IMG/VR virus record: IMGVR_UViG_2585427737_000015
DNA from: a virus
Lineage: Duplodnaviria > Heunggongvirae > Uroviricota > Caudoviricetes
DNA length: 31,306 nt
Direction: 5' to 3' (one strand)
Shown here: positions 8,235 through 28,514 of the stretch, piece by piece
How the letters are laid out: the number at the start of each line of letters is the position of its first letter
Numbering within the stretch: the first letter of the stretch is position 1
Notes under the pieces: generated by a model
The model's database searches: none
Told to the model about the DNA's origin: nothing
Seen by the model: only the letters and a program-made list of their open reading frames with translations
Program-made: the position numbers and the translations under genes

Positions 8235-8339
8235 CCGTTTAACTCCGTGGTTAATGGGTGCAACTATTTTCTGTTGTGCAGAGCATGAGACGCTATTTGA
8301 CCTGGCTGGTCAGGGGATGAAACAACAGATAAAGAAAAT

Positions 8340-8356
8340 GCGGGCAATTCGCCCGC
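8340..8356 (-). terminator. Candidate rho-independent terminator between the cargo protease gene and FI
   Basis: Hairpin GCGGGC-GAATT-GCCCGC (8340-8356) followed on the minus strand by a U-rich tract (plus-strand AAAGAAAAT 8331-8339). Confidence 0.35.
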
Positions 8357-8831
8357 CTGTCCTGATTTGTACTCACTCATTTTCCGCCTGACAATTTACA
8401 TAGCCCAAATGCTATCAAATCTGACAGTCTGCTTTGAGCGAAGAGCGGACTTGAGACTATTGTAAATGAAAACCATATAATTTTAACCGGCAGAAACACA
8501 TGAGTAATTTTAAGGCTAATTAGTTATCTGGGAGATGAGGGGCAAAGCACGATATCGTACACCAATGGAATAAGCTTATGATTAATATAAATATAAAAGG
8601 CAGAAAGCCTTCCTCAAAATGGCTTGAATCGGGTGCATCTGTCTGCGAAACGATTTTTTAGACGTTTTTATCGCTTTCAGTTCAGTTTTCCCCTCGAATC
8701 CAAGTGACAAAGCCGATTTAGTTTTCACACATCCGTACAATGTGCATCCCTCGATGAGCCTTTTCAGGCAAAGTTACGGGGATGCTTGATTCATTTAAAC
8801 TGAGTTAGTACAACTTAATTAATAATATCAT

Positions 8832-9824
8832 TTATGCTAGAGTTGAATATTCTCCATTTCCTCGGTCGGTGAGTGTTAATTCGCGGCCATTTTCTGTAAA
8901 TGTAATGGCATCCAGCAGGCTTTTTCCTGTTACAGCTATACCATATCCAAGGTTATCAATCTTTGAACTGTCCTCAGATGATATTGGTATTTGTACAAGC
9001 ATACCAACAACAAAGCCGTATTTGTTAATTATAGGGCCACCGCTATTCCCCCCCTTAACCCTAGCATTGAATAATAAAAAGTCTTGTGAATCTAAGTAAG
9101 AGTGACCAGAACCAACAATTCGCCCCTTTGACAGTCGGACAAACGAATTTATATGCGAAACGTCATATAACTTTAATGCATCAAATCCTGGAATGGGTGG
9201 AAATCCTATTGATAAAATTTCATCCAGTACCGAGGCTTTGGTTGAGACCTTAAGTGGTTGAATATTATCTTCATTCGGAATGGTTGTGAAAACTAAAGCG
9301 ATATCAATACGTTCATCGTTAGATACAAAGATTTTATGTATTGGTAAAGCCTCACCACCAGCTCTAAGTATCCTGATACTCTTCATGTCTTCAATAACAT
9401 GTCTGGCTGTAAATATCGTGTGGTTATTCCCAACAATAAAACTAGTACCAAGATCATGTGAACCATCACTTTTTTCAACAACAACAGGTAAAACGGAAGG
9501 ACTAAGGCGGTCTATGATTGACTCAAATCCATCAGCTATAAAATCATACTTTCCATATTTCGCATCTGATTCATTGAAATTCGGTGCGAAATAGCAACGG
9601 TCCAAAAGAGTATGTCCTGAAGATAATTCCATTAAAATACCTTCAGTTGCTAGCTTTTCACAATTGCGTATTAACTTCATCATATCGAGAGTATTTTCCC
9701 ACTCAGGTTTGAGACGGGTCAGGCTCTCAATTGTTTTTCTCTCTTTTACGTTATCGTTTTCCGGTTTGTCATAAAAATATTTCACTATTTCTGTTGGTGT
9801 TACATATGTTTTTTTTATAGTCAT
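8832..9824 (-). CDS. Cargo gene at the P2 Z/fun locus: N-terminal domain of unknown function fused to a trypsin-like (chymotrypsin-fold, S1/Trypsin_2-type) serine protease domain; 330 aa from ATG, 348 aa if the upstream GTG is used
   Basis: ORF 8832..9878. Motifs GTSFIVGNNHTIFTARHV (His160), ERIDIALVF (Asp192), VKGGNSGGPI (Ser279), track numbering, with triad spacing typical of DegP-like proteases. No Shine-Dalgarno before the GTG at 9878; a weak one before the ATG at 9824. AT-rich relative to the flanking phage genes. Confidence 0.7.
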   Translation of the reverse strand: MTIKKTYVTPTEIVKYFYDKPENDNVKERKTIESLTRLKPEWENTLDMMKLIRNCEKLATEGILMELSSGHTLLDRCYFAPNFNESDAKYGKYDFIADGFESIIDRLSPSVLPVVVEKSDGSHDLGTSFIVGNNHTIFTARHVIEDMKSIRILRAGGEALPIHKIFVSNDERIDIALVFTTIPNEDNIQPLKVSTKASVLDEILSIGFPPIPGFDALKLYDVSHINSFVRLSKGRIVGSGHSYLDSQDFLLFNARVKGGNSGGPIINKYGFVVGMLVQIPISSEDSSKIDNLGYGIAVTGKSLLDAITFTENGRELTLTDRGNGEYSTLA

Positions 9825-10217
9825 TTTTGTACCCGCGATGACGTTATTCCATATATTTTTCTTTGTAGAAAATATCACTATTGCTGGTAAATGTTAAGTT
9901 CAGTGCTCGCACTAAAGCTGGATGATCAACGTCGCCCTCGTATGGAAATCAGGTAAGATTCATGTCTACTTGGGGTCTAGGGTAGACAGCATAAAAACGT
10001 ACGATAGCGTTCGATTGGCTCTCCCCCCCGCCTATAAACCATGAGGTTGATAGGGTAGTATCGTTAGGCAATAGTATACATGTAAGTATCCAACCTAATT
10101 GGTCTTGAGATTTCTAACTAACGTGTCGTTATGTCCGCTCCTGGCACAGAGCGGACTGTCAGATTAGGCTTTACTCTGTTCTATAGGTATGTAAGCTCAC
10201 ACAAGAGTTCATACAAC

Positions 10218-10745
10218 TTATTGCGGCATTTCCGGCCATTCAGGATTTGCAGGATCCACACGACTGATCAGAACGCTGTAGCGTTCCCATGATTCCAGTC
10301 GGCTACGCTCCTCATCTGTTGCCATGTTCAGTCTGACCGCGCGCTCCAGCGGCAAAATCACGGATTCAGCATCTGCAAGAAGTCTGGCTTTCCGAATTTC
10401 TGCCTGCTGCTGTAATTCCTCTGCCGTATAAATGCGTTTAATCACTTTGCCGTCCTTAAACATCCAGTTCCCTGAAATGTCCGCCCGTCGGTTAGCAGTA
10501 ATATCCGCCACTTCAACAACACTTAATCCATCCGGTCTGATAGCTGTCACATCCTTTTCCACATAGTGGATGATATTATCTTTGTCGTACGCTATTTTTA
10601 TCGTGTCATCAGCAAAATACTTTTGTTCTTCGTACCAGTTCTTACCATCTTCTGAAAAAAACCAGACAACATCAAAGTCCTTTGTCAATTGATATTGTTC
10701 AACCGTTTTTGGATTACCCGCCGTAATATTTTTTAAATGCTGCAT
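10218..10745 (-). CDS. G: Tail fibre assembly protein gpG (175 aa)
   Basis: ORF track; P2 length; directly downstream of H. Confidence 0.8.
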
Positions 10746-10748
10746 AAA

Positions 10749-12998
10749 TTATACCTGCGCCACGTTATACCATGTCCCGTTAATGTATTTCTGCACCGGT
10801 CTGTAATATACGCCACCAATGTTATCGGCAGAGTTTGAGCCGGTATCCTGAACAATAATGCCGGTATATACGCAACCTGACGGAGCCTGATGCGTCCATG
10901 TAGTACCATTATTTGCTGGTTTATATGTAGATGCACCGCCCAGCCGCATGTCTCTCACATAACGTGAATCTGACTCAGTTTTGGTGTATGCACCAACATC
11001 TCCCGCTGAGGGTTTATGAGCAGTTGTATATAGTTGCGCCCATCCAGACCAGTTAGCATCTGTGGTATCTCGTCGGGAACGAATATATGCCGGAGCATGA
11101 GCACCGCTGGTTCCACTCCAGCCAATAAGTAACTCACCCTCTCCTACTGCGGTTACGCCAGTGAGATGAAGCACATTACCATAGGCTGTTGGGTAGCCAT
11201 TGTTGTATGCCTCATACATCTGAATACCTGGTGTCCCCTTTACGCTCCCACCTAATGCATTAACACGGTTTCTGGATACCAGTGTATTAATATTTATATC
11301 GGCAGAGCCATCAAATCTGACACCATTAATATTTCTTGCGTTCGCTAACTTCGTTGCTGTTGCAGCATTTCCTGAAAGGCTGGAAATAAATGGATGTGAA
11401 CAGTAATAACCACGTCCATTTTTAAAATCCAGAATAGCCTGTGCGTTCGTGCTTTCTGTAGCGGGATTAGTTGCCCCCCACTTATATGTCGTTTGACCGA
11501 CGACATAATCCTCTGTCGGAACAATAACCGTTAGCCCTTCCTCTGCAAGAATTTGTACAGGGAAAGCTCTGGCTTCAACATAAAAAACACTACATACATC
11601 ATCATCTTTCAGGCTTGTAACAATGGAATGGATTGAACGCTCATTAGTCTGATACGTCCAGAAATAACCTGCCGCATATGAACCACGATCAGTCCAGCCT
11701 CCGGGCATAACCATGCCATTAAACTCGCAGTTATTCATTACATAATCGCCGTTATAACAACCAGTGGAAATAACAACGCGGGATGCCATTTCTCCTGAAA
11801 GGCTGGCAGCACGGCGAAAGATAACGGGGTACCACTTCCCGGCAACGACATTTGCAGGGGCTGCAAACGAATACTTTCGCATTCCCTTTTTCTTATCCAC
11901 TTCACCTTTGCTGTAAACATTAATGTTACTCAGGAAGCGTTCTTTATCAGGGATATCCGCACCGTTCTGATCTTTCTGAAGACGTTTTTCAGCATTGTCA
12001 TAGGCAGACTTCACCGCCTTTGGCGTTGCAGCCTGCGTTTCAGAATCACTGTTGGTGGCGCTACTGAGCTGGACAAGACCTTTTCGCGCCGTGGTGGCAT
12101 CCTGTGCAGTGTATTTCCCGTTAGCAAGGTCATATGCTGTCTTAACCGCCTTTGGCGTTGCCGCAAGCGTTTCAGAATCGCTGTTGGTGGCGCTACTGAG
12201 CTGAACAAGGCCTTTTCGCGCTGTTGTGGCATCCTGTGCAGTGTATTTCCCGTTAGCAAGGTCATATGCTGCCTTTACCGCTTTCGGCGTTGCGGCGAGC
12301 GTTTCAGACGTGCTGTTAGTCGCACTACTGAGCTGAACAAGGCCTTTTCGCGCGGTGGTAGCGTCCTGTGCGGTATATTTCCCGTTAGCAAGGTCATATG
12401 CGGCCTTAACCGCCTTTGGCGTTGCAGCCAGTGTTTCAGACGTGCTGTTGGTCGCACTGCTTAACTGAGTAAAACCTTTTGCGGTCAGCGAGGCGTCAGG
12501 GTGACGTCGTGACTGTTCATGTTCTGCAATTTTGTCATCAACGTAATCCTGCGTTGCCATCACCGTTGTGGTGTCAATGGTCAGCTCCACTGAGGCCACA
12601 CTGCTGACGATGATGACCATGCGGCAGGTCTGCGAACGCCCTGAGCCTTCGGCAAGGGCTGGCTTATAACTTTCGGCCATGTTCGCCACGGCAATTAACG
12701 TTCCAGCATCATCGTACAGGCCAAGCTCACGCATCCAGAAACCGCCCACCTCCGGCGGAATAACCAGCTCTGCGATAATATAATTACTGTTTCGTTTGTC
12801 CTGACTGATTTTGTTCAGCGCATGTCGCCAGACTTCGTGGATAAGCCCGGTCTGTCCGGCATCCGGGACAGGCAATTTACCACCGCCATCCCCGACGGCC
12901 ATCGTGGTAATGTTGACCTTCCGCCCTCCCGGCGCGGTTGCCGCTGCCAGCTTTGCTGCACCGGCAGTAGTGATAACGGTTTTGAATTTTGTGCTCAT
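10749..12998 (-). CDS. H: Tail fibre protein gpH (749 aa) with four tandem 44-aa repeats
   Basis: ORF track; N-terminus MSTKFKTVITTAGAAKLAAA is P2 H-like; longer than P2 H because of the repeat expansion and a different C-terminal receptor-binding region. Confidence 0.85.
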   Translation of the reverse strand: MSTKFKTVITTAGAAKLAAATAPGGRKVNITTMAVGDGGGKLPVPDAGQTGLIHEVWRHALNKISQDKRNSNYIIAELVIPPEVGGFWMRELGLYDDAGTLIAVANMAESYKPALAEGSGRSQTCRMVIIVSSVASVELTIDTTTVMATQDYVDDKIAEHEQSRRHPDASLTAKGFTQLSSATNSTSETLAATPKAVKAAYDLANGKYTAQDATTARKGLVQLSSATNSTSETLAATPKAVKAAYDLANGKYTAQDATTARKGLVQLSSATNSDSETLAATPKAVKTAYDLANGKYTAQDATTARKGLVQLSSATNSDSETQAATPKAVKSAYDNAEKRLQKDQNGADIPDKERFLSNINVYSKGEVDKKKGMRKYSFAAPANVVAGKWYPVIFRRAASLSGEMASRVVISTGCYNGDYVMNNCEFNGMVMPGGWTDRGSYAAGYFWTYQTNERSIHSIVTSLKDDDVCSVFYVEARAFPVQILAEEGLTVIVPTEDYVVGQTTYKWGATNPATESTNAQAILDFKNGRGYYCSHPFISSLSGNAATATKLANARNINGVRFDGSADININTLVSRNRVNALGGSVKGTPGIQMYEAYNNGYPTAYGNVLHLTGVTAVGEGELLIGWSGTSGAHAPAYIRSRRDTTDANWSGWAQLYTTAHKPSAGDVGAYTKTESDSRYVRDMRLGGASTYKPANNGTTWTHQAPSGCVYTGIIVQDTGSNSADNIGGVYYRPVQKYINGTWYNVAQV
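11964..12464 (-). repeat. Four near-identical tandem 132-bp (44-codon) repeats inside gene H
   Basis: Protein repeat LSSATNS[TD]SET[LQ]AATPKAVK[ATS]AYDLANGKYTAQDATTARKGLVQ x4 starting near residue 179. Nucleotide repeats visible (GTTAGCAAGGTCATATGC recurs about every 132 bp). Boundaries approximate. Confidence 0.8.
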
Positions 12999-13008
12999 TA
13001 TTCCTCAC

Positions 13009-13539
13009 TTATCCGGGGTAAACCGTAATTACATCGCCGTCGTAAGCCACACCACCGGCGAACAGATAGCCGGGAATGTCCCGGGTAATGTTCAGACCAA
13101 TAAGGTGACGGCTTGCAGGTTTGGCATCAGCAATCAGCCGTTCCATTTCCTGATACATTGCCTCTGTGATACCGCTTTCCAGTACACCAATATCGAGCCG
13201 GAAGGTGCCGGGCGGGTCACTGTTTTCCCACCACTCCGTCACGTTGATGAGATAGCCGAGCGGCTCCACCACACGTCGGATTGCACCTATCGTGCCCTTA
13301 TGACAGTGGATGAAATAGGCATCGCGGATAACGGCGCGTTTTGTCGCTTCCGGCCACTTTTCATCCCACCTGTCGACCGAAAACGCCCACGCCAGCCACG
13401 GCAGCAGATTTGGCGGGCAGGTGTCCGGGTTCCACAGCTCACGAATACTGACCGGCGTTTTTTCAATTTCCGCACAGGCTTTCGCGGCAGCGACTTCAAG
13501 CGGTGATGAGCCGGTCGGCAGCAGGCGCGAATCACTCAT
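13009..13539 (-). CDS. I: Baseplate protein gpI (176 aa)
   Basis: ORF track; P2 length and order. Confidence 0.85.
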   Translation of the reverse strand: MSDSRLLPTGSSPLEVAAAKACAEIEKTPVSIRELWNPDTCPPNLLPWLAWAFSVDRWDEKWPEATKRAVIRDAYFIHCHKGTIGAIRRVVEPLGYLINVTEWWENSDPPGTFRLDIGVLESGITEAMYQEMERLIADAKPASRHLIGLNITRDIPGYLFAGGVAYDGDVITVYPG

Positions 13540-14440
13540 CCGAGCCTCCGGTCACGACGCGGTATTCGGTGCAGAAAGACGCCTGCGTACTGTTGAGCAC
13601 GATGTCGGCCAGTGGTGCAGCCAGTTCGACACGCTGCACGCCTTCCACATGCAAGGCGGCATAAATGGCAGACAGACGGATGTCGCGCCCCAGCCGGTGC
13701 TGTGCCGTGATGTACGCTTCCAGTTTTTTCACGGCGGCAGCGCGAATGGGTTCGCTTTCGGGGCCAGGGTAAAGGTAAAGCGTGGCATTTATCTGGTATT
13801 CAACGATGGCGGCAGACTGCACGGTCACACGGTCGGCCACCGGTCTGACGTCCTCGCCATTCAGGGCGTTGCGCACCACAGCCAGCAGGTCTTCAGATGC
13901 CACACCGTTATTTTCACGTGACAGCACAGAGATGGTGACACAGGCCGGAGACGGACTGGTGACAGAGATATCCGCGACACGCCCGTCGGCACTGCGACCA
14001 TGATACTGATAGGCTCCCACCGACCCGGCGACGCTTAAGCCTTCAAACGCCTGCTGAATACGCAGACGATAATCGGTGTCAGACTCCATCACTGCCGGTG
14101 TCGGCGGGATAGTCGAATCATCTGCCGGGGTGATAGTCAGGCGCGTGGTGTTGTAATTGGCACCAATCACATCAAGGTCATTACCGGCTGCCCAGGCCAG
14201 CATCACCGCCCGTGCAGCCTCATTCACACGCTGACGCCAGATAAGCTCGCGATACGCATTTTCCTCCAGCAGTTTGACGAGAGGCTCGGATTCCAGCGTC
14301 AGGGTACGGGCGACCGCCTCCTGCTGATCTTCCGGGTAAAGGGAAATCAGTGTCGCCTTGCGTTCAGCGAGAATGCTTTCAAAGTCCAGCTCCTCGACCA
14401 CATCCGGTGCGGGTAGCTGGTTCAGGTCGATAATCGGCAT
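13532..14440 (-). CDS. J: Baseplate wedge protein gpJ (302 aa)
   Basis: ORF track; P2 length and order; overlaps I by 8 nt. Confidence 0.85.
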   Translation of the reverse strand: MPIIDLNQLPAPDVVEELDFESILAERKATLISLYPEDQQEAVARTLTLESEPLVKLLEENAYRELIWRQRVNEAARAVMLAWAAGNDLDVIGANYNTTRLTITPADDSTIPPTPAVMESDTDYRLRIQQAFEGLSVAGSVGAYQYHGRSADGRVADISVTSPSPACVTISVLSRENNGVASEDLLAVVRNALNGEDVRPVADRVTVQSAAIVEYQINATLYLYPGPESEPIRAAAVKKLEAYITAQHRLGRDIRLSAIYAALHVEGVQRVELAAPLADIVLNSTQASFCTEYRVVTGGSDE

Positions 14441-14444
14441 GGTT

Positions 14445-14792
14445 TCAACTCACAGGGATGGTTAACGAAAGTGGCTGGCCGGTGTCGTTGTGCTGGCCGG
14501 TTAACGTGACCGTCATTCGCCCGTCAAAACTGCGCTCAGTGGTGACGGATGACAGGGTGACGCGGGGTTCCCATTTCAGCACCGCCATGTAACAGGCGAC
14601 CTTAATCTGCAACTCAAGCGCCGGGGTCTGCGGCTGGTCAATCATTGACGCCAGCAAGGAGCCGTAATCACGACGCATCACCCGTGAGCCGACTGGTGTG
14701 CGCAGGATATCGCCGATACTCTGGCTGATATGCTCGAGGTCAGTGACCGTCAGGCCATCACTGCGATTCATTCCGAGATAACGCGCTGTCAT
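14445..14792 (-). CDS. W: Baseplate protein gpW (115 aa)
   Basis: ORF track; P2 length and order. Confidence 0.85.
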   Translation of the reverse strand: MTARYLGMNRSDGLTVTDLEHISQSIGDILRTPVGSRVMRRDYGSLLASMIDQPQTPALELQIKVACYMAVLKWEPRVTLSSVTTERSFDGRMTVTLTGQHNDTGQPLSLTIPVS

Positions 14793-15424
14793 AGAGGACT
14801 CCCGGTTGTGCCGCCGCTGTCGCCGGGGTGTTTATGGGTATGCAGTACCTTACCGTTTGATGAGAGTTCACCGCCGGTGTGTTCAATGTTGCCGCGCATC
14901 GTCCCGCCCTTCTGCACTTCCAGCGTGCCGGTAATCAGCCTGTTGGTGCAGACCACCTCCGGGGTGTCCAGGGTGACGCGGGTTGATGCTTTCACCATGA
15001 CCACCGGCACCGTGGCAGTAACAGAATCAGAAGCCGTCACGCTGGCCGTTTTAATTCCGCTTACCGTGAGTGCACTGGTTTCGGGTTCATATTCAATCAC
15101 CGCCCCGTCAGGGAAACGGATATGCAGGGCATCCGCCGACACAGACGGCGAGGGGTTATCGCCGGAATAAATCCCCGGCAGAACGAACGCCGTGTCGAGT
15201 TCACCACCCACGGCCAGAATCAGCACCTGTTCCCCCACGGAAGGTGCCCACCATGTGCGCGAACGTCCTGCGCGATGGGTCAGCCACTGAAGCCAGTCGG
15301 TGCACATGCCGCCGGTCTGCACGCGGCAGCGACCGGCGTTAAGGTCGGTTTCGACGATAATGCCGGTGCGAATCATGTTGCGCAGTGCGCGCGCGAGTTC
15401 CTGAATATTTGCGAGAGTGTTCAT
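14789..15424 (-). CDS. V: Baseplate spike protein gpV (211 aa)
   Basis: ORF 14789..15442; start moved to the internal ATG (MNTLANIQELARAL...) to match the 211-aa P2 gpV; overlaps W by 4 nt. Confidence 0.8.
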   Translation of the reverse strand: MNTLANIQELARALRNMIRTGIIVETDLNAGRCRVQTGGMCTDWLQWLTHRAGRSRTWWAPSVGEQVLILAVGGELDTAFVLPGIYSGDNPSPSVSADALHIRFPDGAVIEYEPETSALTVSGIKTASVTASDSVTATVPVVMVKASTRVTLDTPEVVCTNRLITGTLEVQKGGTMRGNIEHTGGELSSNGKVLHTHKHPGDSGGTTGSPL

Positions 15425-15507
15425 GCGTGTGAGATTGCACAATATATAAAAGTTATGCTATCTGGATTCATTTGTAGAACTACCAGACAACATTCAAGGA
15501 GAGCGTA

Positions 15508-16293
15508 ATGGTCAGCTATAATGTGACTAATGTGTGGGGGCTAATCGTTTTTTTCCTTTGTAGCTTTGCAGTATTAGCATTTTTTAGCTTTGGTAAAAGT
15601 AACCTTATGAGGCTTATTGCACATTATTTCAATTTTGGATATTCAGACAAAAAATTAAAAAGACTTGACCGCGAGTGGCGCGACATTCAACTATTTAAAA
15701 TAATTAACGGAATCAATGTATCAGGCATTGAAAATGTGAGAATGATACAGCAGGGACTGATTGATGGAAAACTAAAAACATCGTATTTTTTCCTTACTCG
15801 CATCTGGGGTGACATAACAAAACCACCACACATAATTAAAACAACAATTGTAATTCTGGCCAGTATTATTTATATTCTCTTCGCATGTTATATACACAAC
15901 AAACAATCCGCTATAGTAAGAGATGCCATAGGCATACCATATAAAAATATGATGTACTATGTTTATAGTGACAAAGTTCTTTTATCCTTCAAAAATAAAG
16001 CAGTTGAATTTAATAAAACTTATAGCCTTGCCGATTGCAAGAGACTGCAAAACGTATTTATAAAAGACACACTTCCTGAAATCGCCTGCAATAAGCTCTT
16101 ACAGCTAAACGAGGAGGACTCCGAATGGTTAAGCCAGGAGATTAAAGATAATAACAGTCACAAAAAAGCATTATTAATACTATCCCTCGTCTATTTCACT
16201 TCAGGTCTGGTTATATTCCTGTCATATACAAAATTCTTTTACGCCAATAAGAAGGTTTTAGAATACAAAGCATCAAATAAAAATCACTCATAA
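15508..16293 (+). CDS. Cargo gene at the P2 orf30 locus: AT-rich predicted integral membrane protein (261 aa, about 3 transmembrane segments), function unknown
   Basis: ORF track; Shine-Dalgarno AGGAG 8 nt before the ATG; hydrophobic stretches at about residues 9-29, 113-133 and 221-241; opposite strand to the flanking late genes; low G+C by eye. Confidence 0.65.
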   Translation: MVSYNVTNVWGLIVFFLCSFAVLAFFSFGKSNLMRLIAHYFNFGYSDKKLKRLDREWRDIQLFKIINGINVSGIENVRMIQQGLIDGKLKTSYFFLTRIWGDITKPPHIIKTTIVILASIIYILFACYIHNKQSAIVRDAIGIPYKNMMYYVYSDKVLLSFKNKAVEFNKTYSLADCKRLQNVFIKDTLPEIACNKLLQLNEEDSEWLSQEIKDNNSHKKALLILSLVYFTSGLVIFLSYTKFFYANKKVLEYKASNKNHS

Positions 16294-16301
16294 ACCTCTA
16301 A

Positions 16302-16332
16302 ACATTGAGCGCCCAGCATGGCCGCTCAATGT
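16302..16332. terminator. Hairpin between convergent genes (cargo membrane protein and S), probable bidirectional terminator
   Basis: Perfect 10-bp stem ACATTGAGCG / CGCTCAATGT (16302-16311 and 16323-16332) with an 11-nt loop; followed by a T-containing tract on the plus side. Confidence 0.45.
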
Positions 16333-16364
16333 TTAATTGCGCATCAGCCTCTGCCTGGATAAAA

Positions 16365-16817
16365 CTAACGCTCAAGGTGAGCCAGGATAATCTCTTCAAT
16401 CATCTGCACATCCTCACAGGTAAAGCCGAGCAGAGGACGCGCCGGATAATCAATTTTCTTACCGTCTTTCCGGGTTTCTTCCGACAGACCGAACTGATGC
16501 ACACTGGCTATTTTCGGTGACTTCCCGCCGTAAAACTCCATTGATGCCTGTTCAGGGCTGGCGCGGATATGCAAAAAACGACTGGTGATAAGTTTCGCAA
16601 ACATTTTTCGCTTAACGCGACCGGTCTTTTTTCTGGCGCTCTGCTGCTGGCGTGGTGCGTAGGGTGTGCCGTCCGGGGCTTTCTGTGCCATCACCCGGCG
16701 CTGCTGACTCTGCCGCAGACGTTTCGCCAGTTCGGCGCTCAGTCGCCGACGCCCTGACGGTGACAACGATTCAATCAGTCCGGTCAGCCGGTCTTCAAAA
16801 CGCTTAAACTCATTCAT
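16365..16817 (-). CDS. S: Tail completion protein gpS (150 aa)
   Basis: ORF track; P2 length and order. Confidence 0.85.
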   Translation of the reverse strand: MNEFKRFEDRLTGLIESLSPSGRRRLSAELAKRLRQSQQRRVMAQKAPDGTPYAPRQQQSARKKTGRVKRKMFAKLITSRFLHIRASPEQASMEFYGGKSPKIASVHQFGLSEETRKDGKKIDYPARPLLGFTCEDVQMIEEIILAHLER

Positions 16818-19016: not shown

Positions 19017-19019
19017 GCG

Positions 19020-19732: not shown

Positions 19733-19831
19733 GACTACCTCTGAAAAGTCGGGCGGTGGACGCCGGTGCAGTGTCAGGTGATTCACCCTCACTGACCGGC
19801 GTGCCGCCCTGGCGCGGGGCGCATTCGGTTG

Positions 19832-20575
19832 TTAACTGGCTTTCTTTTTCGGGCGTCCACGTTTTGCCGGTGTCGCACTCCGGCTCTTACGCGTGGCACG
19901 GGTGGCCGCTTTGGGTTGCGGCTCCGGCTTCGGTTTCAGTTCCCGCTCCAGTCGTTCAATCTCTTTTTTGACGCCTGCCTGACAGTCGAGCTGTGTCGCA
20001 CGTTGCAGGTGCGCCAGCGCACCTGCGGCATCACCAGTGTCACGCAGAAACAGACCGGTGATTTTGTGCAGCTTTGCGCGCACTTCATCAGGCATGTCAG
20101 CAGCAGCGGTCAGTTCAAGGGTGTCCGTCAGCAGTCGGATATCCACGGATTCACCGGCAGCGTGAGCGCGCATGGCCGCAAGCGCCACCTCCTCGGTGAA
20201 CATGTACGGCGGGGTGCGGCGGTGTTTACCCGGCATGGTCAGCCCGTACTTCAGGGCATAACGGGCAATCTCCAGCGCACCGGCAATATCGCCGGTATCC
20301 AGACGCCACAGCATGACCGTCATCAGAATGTCATCCTGTGCACCTTTGCCCTGCTCCAGCACGCCGTTCACCCACGGCAACCAGAACGGCAGCAGTTCGC
20401 GTTTTTTCGCGGCCTTCAGCTCTTTTGAATAAATCGCTTTCAGTGTGCGCTGGTCTGCGGCCAGCTTGACCAGCATCTGCTCATAGACAGTTGCATGTCG
20501 CAGCGGGGCGGCTTCCCGCTGCGCGGTCATCGCTGCCGAGACCCGCATCATGTGGCGCTGTGCGGGACTCGTCAT
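19832..20575 (-). CDS. M: Terminase endonuclease (small) subunit gpM (247 aa)
   Basis: ORF track; P2 length and order; basic C-terminal tail. Confidence 0.85.
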   Translation of the reverse strand: MTSPAQRHMMRVSAAMTAQREAAPLRHATVYEQMLVKLAADQRTLKAIYSKELKAAKKRELLPFWLPWVNGVLEQGKGAQDDILMTVMLWRLDTGDIAGALEIARYALKYGLTMPGKHRRTPPYMFTEEVALAAMRAHAAGESVDIRLLTDTLELTAAADMPDEVRAKLHKITGLFLRDTGDAAGALAHLQRATQLDCQAGVKKEIERLERELKPKPEPQPKAATRATRKSRSATPAKRGRPKKKAS

Positions 20576-20578
20576 CGG

Positions 20579-21652
20579 TTACGCTCCCGGCTCTGCGGTC
20601 GCTTTAGCCGGTGTGGAGAAATCACCGACCTTAATTTTTTCCACCAGACAACCGGCGGCGTAGTCCTCCACCACGTAATCAATGTTCATTGACTCGTAGT
20701 TCTCCACGCGGTCGAGTTTCGGGTTTTCCTCAATCACGCGGCGATGGCTGTCATCCATGTAGTAGATGGACAGGTTTTCCAGCTTCGTGATGAGCATCGC
20801 ATCTGCCGGGAAGTACGGGACGCGCACTGCCGGCAGGTTACCGATGCGTTTCTGGCTGATGATGACGTCAGCGGCCAGCATTTCGCTGTTGTCCTGCTCC
20901 TTGTTGACGATGGGGAAATACTTGTCCGCCAGTAGCTGACGCCCCACAATCACCACAAGGTCAGGATCTTCCTGATACCAAGGTTCAATCAGGTTGTTGG
21001 TCGCATCCATCACCAGTGCATCGAGGCTTACATAATCACCGCCCTTACCCACGCGGATGACCTCAGAGGTCGTGTGACCTTCCTCGTCAGTAACCTTGCT
21101 CATCACGCGCGCCGGGGCTTCATTGCGGTATTTCTGCAGCCAGCCGACCGCCACATCCTGCAGCATCTGGTTACTGCTGCGGTCAGAGGTTTCGGCACGC
21201 CTCACGCCGTTAAAACCGGCCATGATTAAATCAAGGGACTGGCGTTTGATAATGGCGTTACGGATACGGAGCTGGAAATCCTGATAACGCGCCCACAGGT
21301 CCAGCGTTTTGTAGCGGATATAAAAATCGAAGTTAATCTGGTCGCATTCGTACTTGTTTGACGCCAGCTTCGAGAAGTCCTTCGGCTGACGCTCGGTGCC
21401 ACCGGCGGTGTCGGTGGTGCTGGCGATGGAGCCGGTGACACCAATACCAATTTTTTCCCCTTTCATTTCGCTGACCGGCACAATGTTGATGCGGGTCAGA
21501 AAGTCAGAGGACTCCTGCATGGTGTTCATCAGGGTCTGGGTGACCGACGGTTCAACGGTGAATTTTTTCGACACATCACCGGCGTCGATGCCGTTCAGTT
21601 CGGCAACACGGGACAGGTAGGCATTAAATTTAAAGCGGGTTTCCTGGCGCAT
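20579..21652 (-). CDS. N: Major capsid protein gpN (357 aa)
   Basis: ORF track; P2 length and order. Confidence 0.88.
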   Translation of the reverse strand: MRQETRFKFNAYLSRVAELNGIDAGDVSKKFTVEPSVTQTLMNTMQESSDFLTRINIVPVSEMKGEKIGIGVTGSIASTTDTAGGTERQPKDFSKLASNKYECDQINFDFYIRYKTLDLWARYQDFQLRIRNAIIKRQSLDLIMAGFNGVRRAETSDRSSNQMLQDVAVGWLQKYRNEAPARVMSKVTDEEGHTTSEVIRVGKGGDYVSLDALVMDATNNLIEPWYQEDPDLVVIVGRQLLADKYFPIVNKEQDNSEMLAADVIISQKRIGNLPAVRVPYFPADAMLITKLENLSIYYMDDSHRRVIEENPKLDRVENYESMNIDYVVEDYAAGCLVEKIKVGDFSTPAKATAEPGA

Positions 21653-21710
21653 AGTTTTTCCTGAAATTAAGGGTTAATCGTGAAGGTTTTCCCGGACTGA
21701 CTGACGCCGG

Positions 21711-22565
21711 TCAGCAGTTCGTCATCAGGGCGTCACCGCCACCACCGGTGGCCTTGCTGCGGCGCTGCTGGGTCAGACTTTCGGTGTGGTCGAGACTGTT
21801 TTTCAGGCGGGTGAATGCCTGACTGGTTTCATCCGCCCTGTCAGTCACATCCTGCTTAAGTGCGGAAAAGGCGGTTTCCATCTCAGCGAGTCGCTGCTCA
21901 GTGGCGCTCAGCTTTTCCTGCACATGTTCAGCAACAGCGGTCACCGCTTCATGCACGTCATTCAGACGGGCGTCATCGCTGGCCTGTTTGCGGCCAAAAA
22001 TGGATTTCACCTTTTCGGTCAGGGCGGTGAACACGGTTTCAGGCAGGTCTTCAAATTCCAGCTCAACAGGCGTTGCCACTGAAATCAGGTTTTCAGGGCT
22101 TAATTTGAAGCGGTTCAGGGGGTTGTGTTTTGCCGTGCGGCAGAATTCCAGGTATTCCGTGCCGAGGCTTGCCGGGTCATCGGTGACGGCCAGCCCCACC
22201 AGATAACATTTGCCGGTGTTGGCAAAGTTCGGCTGAATTTCCATTGAGGTATAGACCTTCTGCGCGGCCTTGTTCATCGCGATAAGGTCATCGGTCGGGG
22301 TGATTTTCGCAAACAGCGCCCATTTGCCTTTCAGCGCCGAATCATCGTCAATCTTTTCGGCCTTCAGTTCGGCCACATCGCCATAACGTTTAAAAATGCC
22401 GTCAGGCAGGATGCCGCGCAGATGTTCCAGGTTAATACGGCAACCATAGACTCGCGGGTCAAAGGTTTCGGCCATTTCCTGAATATCCTGCGCACTGATG
22501 ACACGCCCGTCACAGGTGTCACCCTCAACGCCGATACGAAAGAATTTTGAGACTTTTTTTGCCAT
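21711..22565 (-). CDS. O: Capsid scaffolding protein gpO (284 aa)
   Basis: ORF 21711..22631; start placed at MAKKVSKFFRIGVEGD to give the 284-aa P2 length. Confidence 0.82.
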   Translation of the reverse strand: MAKKVSKFFRIGVEGDTCDGRVISAQDIQEMAETFDPRVYGCRINLEHLRGILPDGIFKRYGDVAELKAEKIDDDSALKGKWALFAKITPTDDLIAMNKAAQKVYTSMEIQPNFANTGKCYLVGLAVTDDPASLGTEYLEFCRTAKHNPLNRFKLSPENLISVATPVELEFEDLPETVFTALTEKVKSIFGRKQASDDARLNDVHEAVTAVAEHVQEKLSATEQRLAEMETAFSALKQDVTDRADETSQAFTRLKNSLDHTESLTQQRRSKATGGGGDALMTNC

Positions 22566-22738
22566 TGTCAGGAGTCCTGAATAGTGATTAGAGGAGTCAC
22601 ATGTCGGCATCAGTTTCCCGACGATGCGCATCCTCCGCCATCAGTCCCGGATGGCTTATCACTGACACAACAGCACCTTAGCGAATCGCGGGGCGCGACT
22701 CAGTAGCCTTGCCGTGTATTCATCACGGCGAGGTATTC
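22566..22738. promoter_or_regulatory. Divergent late-promoter region (P_O leftward, P_P rightward) by synteny
   Basis: Intergenic space between divergently oriented O and P, as in P2. I could not find exact Ogr-type TGT-N12-ACA dyads by eye, so this is positional inference only. Confidence 0.35.
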
Positions 22739-24511
22739 ATGACCATCACCACAGACACCACTCTTTTACACGACCCGCGTCGTCAGGCGGCGCTGCTGTA
22801 CTGGCAGGGATTTTCCGTGCCGCAGATTGCCGCCATGTTGCAGATGAAACGCCCGACGGTGCAGAGCTGGAAACAGCGCGACGGCTGGGACAGCGTTGCC
22901 CCCATCAGCCGTGTCGAAATGAGCCTGGAAGCGCGGCTGACCCAGCTCATCATCAAACCGCAGAAAACCGGCGGTGACTTCAAGGAAATTGACCTGCTGG
23001 GACGCCAGATTGAACGACTGGCACGGGTAAATCGCTACAGCCAGACCGGCAACGAGGCAGACCTTAATCCGAACGTCGCTAACCGCAACAAAGGCGGGCG
23101 TCGCAAACCGAAAAAGAATTTTTTCAGTGACGAAGCCATCGAAAAGCTGGAGCAGATTTTCTTTGAGCAGTCTTTCGACTATCAGTTGCACTGGTATCGC
23201 GCCGGGCTTGAGCACCGCATCCGCGATATCCTGAAATCCCGCCAGATTGGCGCGACGTTTTATTTTTCCCGCGAGGCGCTGCTGCGCGCCCTGAAAACCG
23301 GCCATAACCAGATTTTTCTGTCGGCCAGTAAAACGCAGGCGTATGTGTTCCGTGAATACATCATCGCCTTTGCCCGGCTGGTTGACGTTGACCTGACCGG
23401 TGACCCGATTGTCCTGGGCAATAACGGCGCAAAACTGATTTTTCTCGGCACCAACTCCAACACCGCGCAGAGCCATAACGGCGACCTGTACGTCGATGAG
23501 ATTTTCTGGATCCCGAATTTTCAGGTACTGCGTAAGGTGGCATCAGGTATGGCCTCACAGAGTCACCTGCGCTCGACCTATTTCTCCACCCCGTCCACGC
23601 TGGCGCACGACGCCTACCCGTTCTGGTCGGGTGAACTGTTCAACCGGGGACGCGCCAGCGCCGCCGAACGCGTGGAAATCGACGTCAGTCATAACGCCCT
23701 TGCCGGAGGTCTTCTCTGTGCGGACGGCCAGTGGCGGCAGATTGTCACCATTGAGGACGCCCTGAAAGGTGGCTGCACGCTGTTCGACATTGAGCAGCTC
23801 AAACGTGAAAACAGCGCCGACGATTTTAAAAACCTGTTCATGTGTGAATTTGTTGACGACAAGGCGTCAGTGTTCCCGTTCGAGGAGCTGCAACGCTGCA
23901 TGGTCGACACGCTGGAAGAATGGGAAGACTATGCGCCGTTTGCCGCCAATCCGTTCGGCTCCCGCCCGGTATGGATTGGTTACGACCCGTCACACCGTGG
24001 CGACAGCGCCGGATGCGTGGTGCTGGCACCGCCGGTGGTGGCCGGTGGCAAATTCAGAATACTTGAGCGTCACCAGTGGAAAGGCATGGATTTTGCCACT
24101 CAGGCGGAATCCATCCGCAAACTCACCGAAAAATACAACGTCGAATACATCGGTATTGATGCCACCGGCCTCGGTGTCGGCGTGTTCCAGCTCGTGCGCT
24201 CGTTCTATCCCGCCGCGCGCGATATCCGCTACACGCCGGAAATGAAAACCGCAATGGTGCTCAAGGCAAAAGACGTTATTCGCCGTGGCTGTCTGGAATA
24301 CGACGTCAGCGCCACCGACATCACCAGCTCGTTTATGGCTATCCGCAAGACCATGACCAGCAGCGGACGCAGCGCCACCTATGAGGCCAGCCGCAGCGAG
24401 GAAGCCAGCCACGCCGACCTCGCATGGGCGACCATGCACGCTCTGTTAAATGAGCCACTCACCGCCGGTATCAGCACCCCGCTGACATCCACCATTCTGG
24501 AGTTTTACTGA
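22739..24511 (+). CDS. P: Terminase ATPase (large) subunit gpP (590 aa)
   Basis: ORF 22709..24511; start placed at MTITTDTTLLHDPRRQAALLYWQG to give the 590-aa P2 length. Confidence 0.88.
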   Translation: MTITTDTTLLHDPRRQAALLYWQGFSVPQIAAMLQMKRPTVQSWKQRDGWDSVAPISRVEMSLEARLTQLIIKPQKTGGDFKEIDLLGRQIERLARVNRYSQTGNEADLNPNVANRNKGGRRKPKKNFFSDEAIEKLEQIFFEQSFDYQLHWYRAGLEHRIRDILKSRQIGATFYFSREALLRALKTGHNQIFLSASKTQAYVFREYIIAFARLVDVDLTGDPIVLGNNGAKLIFLGTNSNTAQSHNGDLYVDEIFWIPNFQVLRKVASGMASQSHLRSTYFSTPSTLAHDAYPFWSGELFNRGRASAAERVEIDVSHNALAGGLLCADGQWRQIVTIEDALKGGCTLFDIEQLKRENSADDFKNLFMCEFVDDKASVFPFEELQRCMVDTLEEWEDYAPFAANPFGSRPVWIGYDPSHRGDSAGCVVLAPPVVAGGKFRILERHQWKGMDFATQAESIRKLTEKYNVEYIGIDATGLGVGVFQLVRSFYPAARDIRYTPEMKTAMVLKAKDVIRRGCLEYDVSATDITSSFMAIRKTMTSSGRSATYEASRSEEASHADLAWATMHALLNEPLTAGISTPLTSTILEFY

Positions 24512-25545
24512 TGAGCAAGAAAAAAGGGAAAACACCGCAACCTGCGGCAAAAACAATGACCGCCAGCGCCCCGAAAATGGAAGCATTCACCTTTGGTGAG
24601 CCGGTGCCGGTACTCGACCGCCGTGACATTCTGGATTACGTCGAGTGCATCAGTAACGGCAGATGGTATGAGCCACCGATCAGCTTTACCGGTCTGGCAA
24701 AAAGCCTGCGTGCTGCCGTGCATCACAGCTCACCGATTTACGTTAAACGCAATATTCTGGCCTCGACATTTATCCCGCATCCGTGGCTTTCCCAGCAGGA
24801 TTTCAGCCGCTTTGTGCTGGATTTTCTGGTGTTCGGTAATGCGTTTCTGGAAAAGCGTTACAGTACCACCGGTAAGGTCATCAGACTGGAAACCTCACCG
24901 GCAAAATATCCCCGCCGTGGCGTGGAGGAGGATGTTTACTGGTGGGTGCCGTCCTTCAACGAGCCGACACCTTTCACGCCCGGCTCCGTGTTTCATCTGC
25001 TGGAGCCGGATATTAATCAGGAGCTGTACGGCCTGCCGGAATATCTCAGCGCCCTTAACTCTGCCTGGCTGAATGAGTCAGCCACGCTGTTCCGCCGCAA
25101 GTATTACGAAAACGGCGCACATGCCGGATACATCATGTACGTCACTGATGCCGTGCAGGATCGCAACGATATCGAAATGCTCCGCGAAAACATGGTGAAG
25201 TCGAAAGGCCGCAACAACTTTAAAAATCTGTTTCTCTATGCCCCGCAAGGGAAAGCCGACGGCATTAAAATTATCCCGCTCAGTGAAGTGGCAACGAAGG
25301 ACGATTTTTTTAATATCAAAAAAGCCAGCGCCGCAGACCTGCTGGACGCGCACCGCATCCCTTTTCAGTTGATGGGCGGCAAGCCGGAGAACGTCGGGTC
25401 GCTGGGTGATATTGAGAAAGTGGCAAAGGTCTTTGTCCGCAATGAGCTTATCCCGTTACAGGACAGGATCCGCGAGATAAACGGCTGGCTCGGTCAGGAG
25501 GTCATCCGCTTTAAAAACTACTCACTGGACACTGACAACGGCTGA
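24511..25545 (+). CDS. Q: Portal protein gpQ (344 aa)
   Basis: ORF track; P2 length; TGATG overlap with the P stop. Confidence 0.88.
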   Translation: MSKKKGKTPQPAAKTMTASAPKMEAFTFGEPVPVLDRRDILDYVECISNGRWYEPPISFTGLAKSLRAAVHHSSPIYVKRNILASTFIPHPWLSQQDFSRFVLDFLVFGNAFLEKRYSTTGKVIRLETSPAKYPRRGVEEDVYWWVPSFNEPTPFTPGSVFHLLEPDINQELYGLPEYLSALNSAWLNESATLFRRKYYENGAHAGYIMYVTDAVQDRNDIEMLRENMVKSKGRNNFKNLFLYAPQGKADGIKIIPLSEVATKDDFFNIKKASAADLLDAHRIPFQLMGGKPENVGSLGDIEKVAKVFVRNELIPLQDRIREINGWLGQEVIRFKNYSLDTDNG

Positions 25546-25550
25546 ACATC

Positions 25551-25572
25551 GCCGCCTGCGGGCGGCTTTTTT
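25551..25572 (+). terminator. Rho-independent terminator of the P-Q operon
   Basis: GCCGCC-TGCG-GGCGGC hairpin (25551-25566) followed by TTTTTT (25567-25572), 5 nt after the Q stop. Confidence 0.75.
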
Positions 25573-25714
25573 ACCCCCCGTCATCACGCCCTCACACGCT
25601 CACCACCGCACAAAACAGCCCGCAGACACACCAACGCCCCGGCGCACAATCTAAACGCCATCACGACGCGCTCAGACGCTGAAAAAATAAAATCAGCACC
25701 CCCGCCAGCGCGCA

Positions 25715-25733
25715 GTGCTTTCCCCGCCTCGCC
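25715..25733. other. cos site (19-nt cohesive-end sequence), internal to the prophage
   Basis: GTGCTTTCCCCGCCTCGCC is the reverse complement of the P2 cohesive end GGCGAGGCGGGGAAAGCAC as I recall it; correctly placed just beyond Q. Confidence 0.75.
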
Positions 25734-26048
25734 CGCCCGCTTCATGGGGCGGTTTTAATGCAGTTGCATGATGAAACTGAAATCACATCAGCACTGACCG
25801 AAACTGACAAAAAGAATAGTATCTGACACATGCAAAAACACGCACTTAATATACGCCTATCTATAGCTCCTACAGGATTGTCAAAAAACGACCAACTCGT
25901 CATAGCGTAAACACATTTGGCTCAACGAACACTTACGTTATATGCCTCTTGCACATATCAAAGTCTTAAGGTAGATCTTTACCACTAAGTGGCTATATTA
26001 AGCTGCTTTTTTACATACAATAAAAGCTTTATCGTATGAGGCATAAAA

Positions 26049-28265
26049 ATGGAACTTAGATTAAAAAATGTTACCAGTTATAAGAAAGACGCCTTCACAA
26101 TACTGAATCTTGAAAAAAGAGTAAACATACTATACGGCCAAAATGGTTGTGGCAAATCTACCATTTCAAATTATTTCTACGACTCTACACACACAGATTA
26201 TAACGAGTGTGAATGTACCCTTCTTGACAATTACAAACCTCTTGTTTACAACACTAAATTTATTGAAGATAATTTCTACAATGCACAGGAACAAAAAGGT
26301 GTTTTTACATTAAGTAAAGAAAATGCAGATATTGAAAAACAATTAATTAAAAAAGAAGCAATTAAACAGCAACTTACAGAGCAATATAGACAAAAAAAAG
26401 GAGTGTTATTGAAATTAGAAGCAGAAATGGAAAAAAAAGAAAATGAATACATCGAATCGATCTGGAAAAAAACAGAACCAATCAGAAACTCTGTACTAAA
26501 AATCTTAATGAAAGGTAAAGTTGGCTATAAAAGACCTTTTTTTGAGATGATAAAATCATCCTCACCAATCACCTTTATTAATTTAAATGATATAGCAAAA
26601 GAATACTCTATACTATTAGAAAATAGAAACAATGAAACCGCATTAATAACTCCTTTACACCCATATACCCCATCAATTGATGATGTAAATACATTAGCAA
26701 CACCTATAATAGATACAAGCAATAGCTATTTATCAGAAACCATTAATAAACTTCATAATCTTGACTGGGTAAAAAAAGGTAAAGAACATTATTTAGACGG
26801 TTCTACATGTCCGTTTTGTCAGGAAAAAACTATTAGTCGCGAATTTTTAAATGCCCTTAAATCAATATTTGACGAAAGTTATTCAAAGAAAGTAAAACAG
26901 CTCTCAGATATAAAGTCAGTTTATGAGAAAAATACCATATATCATTTTAACGAAATACAAAACAATATATCATCATGTGCACTAATCAATGAGAAAGATA
27001 AAGAGATCATTATTTCCAATATTAAAATATTGCAAAACATTGCAGAAAAAAATTTAATAAACATTATTGATAAGATCAACAATCCATCAACATGCGTTAC
27101 ATTAGAAATTGATAAAGAACTAGAAAATCATGTTCAGGAAAGCATAGACGCTGTTAACAAAAAAATAAGAGACATAAATGATAAGGTTAAAAAACTCAAA
27201 GAGTATGAGAATAAAATCGGAAAACAAGTTTGGGGGGCTCTCCATGCTTTTTGCAGCGATGATTTAGAGAATTTATCCAAACACAAAGAAAAATTCTTTG
27301 ATATCAAAAAGAAAGTTCATGATGAATTAAATAATATTGAGCAACAAGGAAAAGAAAATAATCTCACAATAAAAGCATTGCGAGATAAAATATCTAACAT
27401 TGATTCTACGATAGACTCAATAAACACCCATTTAAAAAATCTAGGGATCTCTGGTTTTTGTATTGAAAAACATGCAGAAAGAAAAGATATGTACATTATA
27501 TCTCGACCAGGGCATACAAAAAACCAAAATGTTTATAGATCTCTTAGCGAAGGTGAAAAAACACTAATAACGTTTCTTTATTTTTTAGAGTGCTGTAAAG
27601 GTAAAACCGATAAAAATGATACCGATAGCAGGGATATTTTTATTGTTATTGACGATCCAATATCTAGTCTATCGCAAAACTATGTCTACGACATCGCATC
27701 AATTATTCATCACCACATTATAAAAAATGAATTAACAAAGAAGGTATTAATCCTTACTCACAATCTTTATTTCTTTCATGAACTTATTAAGCTATCTCCT
27801 AAAAGCAGAGAAGACAAACTATTTAAGAAAAACTATTATCTAGGTAGAGTAACGAAAAATGATTTTAGTATAATTACTGAAATACAAAAAAACAGCATAC
27901 AGAATGAATATCAATCTTTGTGGCAAATATTAAAAGATGCAAAAGATGGCAAAGCAAACAAAATCATAATACCTAATATTATGAGAAACATACTAGAATA
28001 TTATTTTGCATTTGTTCATAGAACAGATGCTCTACAAGATGAATTAACAAAGTTGGCACGCGACGATAGCAACAGTGATTTCAAAGCATTCTACAGATAC
28101 ATTAACAGAGGTTCTCACTCTGATGCGGTAAATATTACTGATATGGGCGACATAGACCCAGATAAATACCTAAAACAATTGAGAACAATATTTTCAGCTA
28201 CTGGTGACGAAATGCATTATTTAAAAATGATGGACGAACTAGAAGAGGAGAACGTTACCGCTTAG
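26049..28265 (+). CDS. Cargo gene at the P2 tin/old locus: 738-aa ABC/SMC-type ATPase with coiled-coil insert and CxxC zinc-hook-like motif plus a C-terminal putative nuclease domain; RloC/PrrC-like (AAA_13-type) candidate anticodon nuclease
   Basis: ORF track; Shine-Dalgarno GAGG before the ATG. Walker A ILYGQNGCGKST (aa 27-38), CPFCQ (aa 254-258) within Lys/Glu-rich coiled-coil sequence, signature-like LSEGEK (499-504), Walker B IFIVIDDP (530-537), LTHN (569-572), and C-terminal R646-x3-E650 ... H690 resembling the PrrC Arg-Glu-His triad. Strongly AT-rich by eye. Confidence 0.6.
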   Translation: MELRLKNVTSYKKDAFTILNLEKRVNILYGQNGCGKSTISNYFYDSTHTDYNECECTLLDNYKPLVYNTKFIEDNFYNAQEQKGVFTLSKENADIEKQLIKKEAIKQQLTEQYRQKKGVLLKLEAEMEKKENEYIESIWKKTEPIRNSVLKILMKGKVGYKRPFFEMIKSSSPITFINLNDIAKEYSILLENRNNETALITPLHPYTPSIDDVNTLATPIIDTSNSYLSETINKLHNLDWVKKGKEHYLDGSTCPFCQEKTISREFLNALKSIFDESYSKKVKQLSDIKSVYEKNTIYHFNEIQNNISSCALINEKDKEIIISNIKILQNIAEKNLINIIDKINNPSTCVTLEIDKELENHVQESIDAVNKKIRDINDKVKKLKEYENKIGKQVWGALHAFCSDDLENLSKHKEKFFDIKKKVHDELNNIEQQGKENNLTIKALRDKISNIDSTIDSINTHLKNLGISGFCIEKHAERKDMYIISRPGHTKNQNVYRSLSEGEKTLITFLYFLECCKGKTDKNDTDSRDIFIVIDDPISSLSQNYVYDIASIIHHHIIKNELTKKVLILTHNLYFFHELIKLSPKSREDKLFKKNYYLGRVTKNDFSIITEIQKNSIQNEYQSLWQILKDAKDGKANKIIIPNIMRNILEYYFAFVHRTDALQDELTKLARDDSNSDFKAFYRYINRGSHSDAVNITDMGDIDPDKYLKQLRTIFSATGDEMHYLKMMDELEEENVTA

Positions 28266-28514
28266 GCCGCATATTATCGTTTTGGGTAAGAACGACGGTG
28301 CTTACGCACCGTCTCCCAACGCCCAAAGCGGTAGCGGTTGTACTGGCGTACATTCACTAGCTTTAACATGAGGCAATCTCCATGCCAGCACTATTGTTGC
28401 CAATAGCAGCCTTTATACCCTTTGTACAAAGCTAATACCAAGAGTAATGCAAAGTAGATGTCCCAAGCGGTAACGGGGCTATTCTATGTCAAACACAGAA
28501 ATAATCAAAGCGCC

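Follow-up and report, generated by a model that had tools for sequence, protein, structure and literature searches.

Three AT-rich accessory genes, one of them a predicted RloC-type anticodon nuclease gene, in the variable loci of a P2-type prophage

P2-like phages carry three horizontally acquired loci, TO, Z and orf30 (Nilsson and Haggard-Ljungquist, cited in PMC3091744), and two of them, TO and Z, are published defense hotspots (Rousset et al. 2022, PMC9122126; Vassallo et al. 2022, PMC9519451; Egorov et al. 2024, bioRxiv 10.1101/2024.10.15.618418). In phage P2 itself, these loci hold tin and old (TO), fun (Z) and orf30. Here we analyzed a 31,306-nucleotide stretch of viral DNA, IMG/VR record IMGVR_UViG_2585427737_000015 (the whole stretch is called the window throughout this text), which we identify from its sequence as a decaying P2-type (Peduovirus) prophage that lies at the cyaR/yegQ site in reverse orientation from position 1507. 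It is likely, in our view, that the three classical variable regions of this prophage each hold one horizontally acquired, AT-rich and self-contained accessory gene, and that these genes are independent of each other and are reshuffled by recombination in the phage backbone. Compared with the published P2 variable loci, the slots of the window occupy the same three positions between the same flanking genes, are likewise low in G+C and vary in content from one close relative to the next; we found no difference in kind, and the exact combination of genes was not seen in 5,426 complete Escherichia coli genomes. The swapped cargo is thus an ordinary example of a documented, already known phenomenon.

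Two nuclease families are the closest described systems for the gene in the TO slot. RloC proteins are defined by ABC ATPase motifs together with a coiled-coil insert that contains a CX2C zinc hook, and they have a C-terminal Arg-X3-Glu-X36-52-His motif, often with a Ser before the His, and a length of 658-897 amino acids (aa) (PMC2610378). PrrC proteins are 341-416 aa long, have no coiled-coil insert, and are always encoded within a type I restriction-modification (R-M) locus (PMC2610378). The zinc hook and the DNA-dependent ATPase form an internal switch in RloC, which is said to explain its lateral transfer without a silencer (Klaiman et al., PMC3458546).

Composition and boundaries of the three slots

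Alignment of the window with P2 by blastn gave two colinear blocks, 1507-8449 against P2 24382-17433 with 94.9% identity and 12273-25733 against P2 13459-1 with 97.3% identity, the latter as one unbroken 13.5-kb alignment. These values bear out the close P2 backbone that an earlier sequence-only reading of this DNA had proposed, and over 50 P2-like phages in the databases align with 80% or more of the late region at ~96% identity. In this P2-colinear genome, the slots sit between FI and G (Z), between V and S (orf30), and between Q/cos and A (TO).

To describe the composition of the slots, we calculated a G+C profile in 400-bp windows and set the slot limits by the breakpoints of the P2 and prophage alignments. 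The 94 backbone windows have a mean G+C of 0.563 with a standard deviation (sd) of 0.028 and a minimum of 0.477, while G+C is 0.377 in the Z slot (8450-10132; z = -6.7; 0.281 at third codon positions (GC3) of the coding sequence (CDS)), 0.350 in the orf30 slot (15425-16362; z = -7.7; CDS G+C 0.333) and 0.318 in the TO slot (25763-28518; z = -8.9; CDS G+C 0.295, CDS GC3 0.249). The drop at the three loci, which had been judged by eye, is therefore real when computed: the slots fall short of the backbone mean by 6.7 to 8.9 sd. In P2, the genes fun(Z), tin, old and orf30 have an equally low G+C of 0.33-0.35, so that low G+C marks the slots and not a non-P2 origin. This likeness, together with the confinement of orf30 to P2-like phages, would suit a reading of the troughs as ancestral P2 genes under compositional bias instead of foreign DNA. 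We regard such an origin as very improbable because each of the three genes is found in a minority of P2-like prophages and a slot can be empty, because the protease and RloC-like families occur across many phyla, and because the GC3 of the cargo genes (0.25-0.34, against 0.58-0.72 in the backbone genes) is the usual mark of recently acquired DNA. Our census of the 5,426 complete E. coli genomes counted 1,938 copies of the portal gene Q and 482 of orf30; 41 genomes have the full protease slot and 44 have the RloC-like gene, with 17 more carrying a 60-80% variant. With these counts, none of the three is a core gene of most P2-like phages.

The slot boundaries are shared among prophages with different contents. 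The Z slot is limited by 8441/8449 and 10133, in the same way against P2 and against the prophage of strain ETEC-2265; the TO slot is limited by 25762/25771 and 28516/28519 across the compared prophages; and the orf30 slot lies within the limits 15424-16363, where the ETEC-2265 prophage has 64 bp in place of 15425-16362. Among the four compared prophages (P2, 120899, ETEC-2265 and SW070912), the breakpoints agree within 0-9 bp. Their contents are as follows: the ETEC-2265 prophage, at the yegQ site, has the same RloC-like gene as the window, the empty orf30 slot and two other hypothetical genes in Z; the prophage of strain 120899, at the fieF site, has the same protease gene and orf30, with a DUF2975 gene and a Panacea-domain gene in TO; and strain SW070912 has the RloC-like gene, an orf30 interrupted by ISEc12, and a Z cargo of a third kind. 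The modular exchange at fixed sites that had been suggested is well borne out by this comparison. As a separate observation, the DUF2975 and Panacea-domain pair in the TO slot of the 120899 prophage (37687-38770 of the compared locus) is likely of toxin-antitoxin type.

Each slot of the window contains one substantial open reading frame (ORF), as predicted, and the RefSeq annotation of identical DNA in other strains shows the same genes, one per slot. The interval 8235-28514 to which the sequence-only reading had assigned the cargo does enclose all three loci; it is mostly backbone, with cargo totaling ~5.4 kb. The proposal of a non-P2 gene in every slot held for Z and TO and failed for the slot between V and S (15425-16362, + strand). 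The gene in that slot (15508-16293, +; 261 aa) has the same length, position and orientation as orf30 of P2, is identical to it at 774 of 786 nucleotides (nt) (98.5%) and 255 of 261 residues, with six amino-acid changes, and falls inside the unbroken 13.5-kb P2 alignment; by alignment, it is P2's own orf30. Its product has three predicted transmembrane (TM) segments in a hydropathy scan (4-31, 106-132 and 219-241), belongs to phrog_2407, a family of unknown function, and is without a match in Pfam, NCBIfam or PADLOC. The relatives found form only five clusters, all enterobacterial, with no informative homologue among them, which weighs against counting orf30 as defense cargo. Any defense role of Orf30 would be speculative, and a membrane-level exclusion function would be a guess.

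The TO-slot gene and the RloC family

The TO cassette (25763-28518, + strand; 2,756 bp) replaces orf91, tin and old in the alignment with P2. Its gene (26049-28265, +) encodes a protein of 738 aa that is assigned to the RloC family by Pfam, PADLOC, motif, AlphaFold2 and Foldseek results as follows: First, the protein matches Pfam AAA_13 over its full length (E = 6.7e-111), PADLOC PDC-S06 (PDLC04886; E = 4.8e-254) at residues 2-730 of 738, and PADLOC PrrC at residues 490-730 (E = 9.7e-13). Full-length relatives with ~30% identity are labeled ‘wobble nucleotide-excising tRNase’, and relatives in Streptococcus prophages are annotated ‘translation-disabling ACNase’. Second, the ABC ATPase motifs of RloC are all present and are invariant in an alignment of 22 homologues with 23-66% identity, namely Walker A (G30-K36), the signature LSEGE (499-503), the Walker B/D-loop region (D535-D536) and the switch histidine (H571). 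Third, a CX2C sequence, C254-P-x-C257 (CPFC in this protein), is likewise invariant as the zinc-hook motif. In the AlphaFold2 model (pLDDT 82), long paired helices (90-141 and 403-464) flank a helical insert of ~370 aa that splits the ATPase head as in RloC, and the CPFC motif is in the loop 250-263 of this insert, where zinc binding is predicted. Fourth, the C-terminal triad is arranged as R646-x3-E650-x39-S689-H690, with R646 invariant and E650 and S689-H690 at least 90% conserved among the homologues, and both the x39 spacing and the length of 738 aa fit the published ranges. The best PDB matches of the model in Foldseek are Rad50, SMC heads, Lamassu LmuB and AriA, and a sequence search of the PDB with the protein found nothing. 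At last, the gene has no linked R-M genes, which is also the case for RloC.

Meanwhile, the comparison with E. coli PrrC shows a common ABC ATPase and C-terminal R-E-H tRNase domain and the same abortive-infection logic, but the neighbors of the TO gene are Q/cos and A, its ATPase is interrupted, and its product is 738 aa long. Taken together, the protein shows every sequence-level and modeled hallmark of RloC, and we identify its gene as a putative RloC-type anticodon nuclease gene, for which wobble excision and DNA-dependent control are predicted by homology. It differs from the described family in that it is only remotely similar (~30% identity) to the labeled homologues and in that the gene lies in a prophage hotspot. 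Table S5A of Rousset et al. 2022 (PMC9122126) includes this protein as WP_000423309, in an ‘AAA_13’ arrangement of one gene at the P2 Q-A hotspot, and the self-silencing of RloC fits its occurrence as single-gene cargo.

By homology to Geobacillus RloC, the Rad50-like ATPase and the zinc-hook region would keep the C-terminal tRNase silent until DNA ends or breaks, for example from phage infection, switch the nuclease on. The activated nuclease would then excise the wobble nucleotide of tRNA and stop translation, so that abortive infection could proceed without a partner protein. Several points weigh against this reading of the TO gene. The assignment to RloC was made indirectly, by the published definition and the labeled homologues; PDC-S06 is a PADLOC candidate only; the literature found gives no experimental demonstration of anti-phage activity for the TO gene or for PDC-S06; and RloC has been studied biochemically while phage protection by it remains a proposal (PMC2610378, PMC3458546). 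Since the features of RloC are present, a predicted defense role is nevertheless well founded for the TO gene, and for this gene only among the three. The sequence-only reading had suggested defense or conversion cargo in the slots; the defense part of this suggestion stands for TO and is a plausible one for the protease described below.

A stand-alone serine protease in the Z slot

The Z cassette (8450-10132, - strand; 1,683 bp) replaces fun(Z) of P2, with no P2 similarity between 8449 and 10133, and contains the gene for an S1 (HtrA-fold) serine protease of 330 aa (8832-9824, -) with the catalytic residues H142, D174 and S261. This His-Asp-Ser triad is invariant among the homologues, and a confident structure model shows the HtrA (chymotrypsin) fold; the NCBIfam scores are far below the family cut-offs. 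No PDZ domain was found with Pfam, and no signal peptide and no TM or other hydrophobic segment in a hydropathy scan; the protease is therefore predicted to be cytoplasmic. The N-domain (about residues 1-110) was modeled as helices and a small sheet, and a scan of 34 family members assigned it to no Pfam family. Two further candidates were set aside: weak isolated Pfam matches to CTD1/CTD12 (ABC-3C) in the protease family were treated as noise, and the idea that the N-domain is a sensor module shared with other effectors was rejected, since its 19 hits among 1.84 billion representatives were all members of the ~330-aa family or fragments of them.

The protease ORF reaches an upstream GTG at 9878, and the ATG at 9824 is the likely start because the homologues begin there and RefSeq uses it. 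Between these two codons, a consensus scan gave a sigma-70-like promoter match with an upstream TG (TTAACA-17-TATTTT, 9869-9897, -), which falls within the 83 nt of upstream DNA that travel with the protease gene in a non-P2 context. Scanning for terminators gave none from G to the protease gene, so that late transcription of the V operon may read into the cargo. The non-coding 3’ part of the cassette was also examined for a conserved RNA or a small gene, and this idea was rejected, with no Rfam hit and no conservation outside P2 contexts.

Three groups of known proteases can be compared with the Z-slot protein. With HtrA, DegS and DegP (S1C), it shares the HtrA/chymotrypsin fold and the catalytic triad, but it has no PDZ domain and no signal peptide for export, and it has a private N-domain. 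Its protease domain resembles the effector domains of reverse transcriptase (RT)-protease class XI and of the protease variants of Lamassu LmuA and Hachiman HamA, which PADLOC matches at the domain level only, but the RT, LmuB or HamB partner is missing. Lit is a functional analogue; it is a metalloprotease unrelated in sequence to the Z-slot protein. The family (phrog_18002 in PHROGs, ‘unknown function’) is scattered over Enterobacteria, Pseudomonas, Nitrospina and Bacteroidota, and the protease is always stand-alone, both in the window and in six other contexts. One homologue lies between HEPN_AbiU2 and DUF4238 genes beside a DUF927/Toprim element, one beside a reverse transcriptase (RVT_1) and an SNF2 helicase, and one near HsdR and a transposase. 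In the P2 hotspot literature, the text and supplements that were searched do not mention the protease cargo.

A defense role of the protease is plausible because of its location in the Z locus, which holds fun and three validated defense systems (PMC9519451). By inference, the protein would most likely be a trigger-activated abortive-infection or exclusion protease. As a tentative and more doubtful extension, phrog_18002 could be a new single-gene abortive-infection defense, in which the N-domain would keep the protease inactive until a phage product frees it to cleave an essential host or phage protein. Four points weigh against the defense reading: several homologues sit amid housekeeping genes, the pairing of homologues with defense neighbors is anecdotal, PADLOC gives no family-level link to a validated defense system, and the N-domain has no recognizable fold match. 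The first of these, together with the absence of a family-level PADLOC hit, would also suit a different role, in which the protease, Orf30 or both are lysogenic-conversion genes that serve host physiology, virulence of enterotoxigenic E. coli (ETEC) or prophage maintenance. The protease-bearing prophage is common in isolates of ETEC and avian pathogenic E. coli (APEC), and the P2 TO hotspot also carries partition systems and a cytolethal distending toxin (PMC9122126). We consider conversion unlikely, though less so than the other alternatives weighed in this text; a secreted virulence factor is hard to reconcile with a protease that has neither a signal peptide nor a TM segment, the Z locus is known for the defense systems named above, and some homologues do sit in defense-gene neighborhoods.

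Mosaic origin, independence and decay of the prophage

The combination of cargo genes in the window can be traced to two known prophages. Positions 6957-17870 are identical, except for 2 nt, to a prophage at the fieF site of an ETEC lineage, while 1-2864 and 25702-29347 are identical to a prophage at the yegQ site of the same lineage, and the two prophages co-reside in sequenced ETEC strains. The Z cargo, the tail-fiber module and orf30 are therefore together on one 10.9-kb tract identical to another prophage, so that neither the Z cargo nor orf30 came in on a cassette of its own. The switch between the parental sequences is at 25701/25702, 14 nt before cos. If the window is not an assembly chimera, these tracts indicate that homologous recombination or gene conversion, within the backbone that both prophages share, gave rise to the cargo combination. 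The possibility of such an artifact in the three-way combination has to be counted against our interpretation: long tracts are perfectly identical to two co-resident prophages that are 96-99% identical to each other, with one sharp switch, and the combination is absent from all the complete genomes examined. A chimera is nonetheless quite unlikely, since 17871-24910 perfectly matches neither prophage, the window has ISEc12 in A and a frameshifted T as features of its own, and mosaicism by homologous recombination is normal for P2-like phages. In the recombination reading, exchange in the near-identical flanking backbone would reshuffle independently working cargo genes among P2-like phages, which would keep the slot boundaries fixed while the contents vary.

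The earlier reading had left open whether the three products act together or alone, and the data favor the latter. No prophage in the complete genomes has all three genes (the best coverage of 8235-28518 is 86%), where ~0.2 would be expected if the slots assorted independently. Neither the protease gene nor the RloC-like gene occurs in any deposited E. coli P2-like phage, and the sole close phage hit is Enterobacter phage ENT4 (65%). A single system whose parts cooperate from three loci, such as a membrane sensor with a protease and a nuclease, could be read from the co-occurrence of the genes in the window and from their common AT-richness and lack of relation to virion functions. It is extremely improbable in our assessment: each gene is found without the others in closely related prophages, no triple carrier was seen in the complete genomes, against ~0.2 under random assortment, homologues of the protease and of the RloC-like protein occur alone in distant taxa, and RloC is documented as self-regulated. 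Because the genes occur separately in other prophages and no prophage has all three, the data favor three independent modules, whose biochemical activities and anti-phage phenotypes are inferred.

The prophage itself is probably defective, as judged from two lesions. Replication gene A is interrupted at 29344/29345 (P2 29466) by ISEc12, an IS21-family insertion sequence (29345-31306, +) that runs off the end of the window, carries istA at 29541-31082 (NCBIfam IS21 transposase, E = 1.3e-92) and is 99.9% identical to ISEc12 of E. coli ATCC 11775. The C-terminal 276 codons of A, including the ori nick site, are thereby severed from the rest (28515-29344, -; 98.0% identity to P2 30295-29466), and the alignment with the 3’ end of P2 A covers 28519-29347. 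This exact junction was found in none of the 5,426 genomes. The tape-measure gene T (3592-6036, -) is frameshifted, with 1 nt missing near 5150-5154 and 2 nt near 4945-4950 relative to P2 and 120899, so that its frame meets a stop after ~300 codons and is regained ~65 codons later; this lesion is either a real pseudogene or a sequencing error. All three cargo ORFs are intact. Separately, ISEc12 also cuts the same RloC-like gene in ATCC 11775, the type strain of E. coli (3725-6260 of the compared locus), and orf30 in SW070912 (8138-10889 of the compared locus), so that three independent insertions were seen in P2-like prophages, two in AT-rich cargo genes and one, that of the window, in A.

The remaining features of the window agree with a P2-type prophage at this site. 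The trhP/yegQ gene (1-1362; NCBIfam 875 bits) and the gene for the small RNA CyaR (1445-1530, +; Rfam RF00112, 100.7 bits) adjoin the prophage, which confirms the cyaR locus named by the sequence-only reading. The 3’ end of CyaR overlaps the start of P2 homology at 1507 (P2 24382, in attP), and the right junction of the prophage is therefore at the yegQ/cyaR site. The first backbone block (1507-8449, -) contains ogr, D, U, T, E/E’, FII, FI and the pF promoter region, and a strong terminator-like hairpin, GCGGGCGAATTGCCCGC followed by a T-run (8340-8356, -), was seen just upstream of the pF promoter region in P2-homologous DNA. The cos region (25715-25762) matches P2 33593-33546 and forms the left edge of the TO slot. 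Directly adjoining the Z slot is a swapped tail-fiber module (10133-12272, -), consisting of gene G (77% identity to P2) and the C-terminal part of H, which has no P2 similarity. H is 749 aa long here and 669 aa in P2, and contains 3.5 copies of a 132-bp (44-codon) tandem repeat (11997-12452) of which P2 has a single unit. The module is a fourth stretch of lower G+C (0.44-0.47), absent from the earlier reading, and the swap fits the published swapping of receptor-binding proteins at this hotspot.

The window as a whole adds little past confirmation of the known P2 variable loci, and its TO gene was already catalogued at this hotspot. It is of modest value in three respects: it makes a clean case from sequence for ‘AAA_13 / PDC-S06’, a common cargo of the P2 hotspot, as a predicted RloC-type anticodon nuclease; it flags a stand-alone protease family as a defense candidate, its only lead; and it illustrates how cargo may be reshuffled when co-resident prophages of one ETEC lineage recombine in the backbone. 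In this probably defective prophage, the cargo genes stay intact while the essential phage genes A and T decay.

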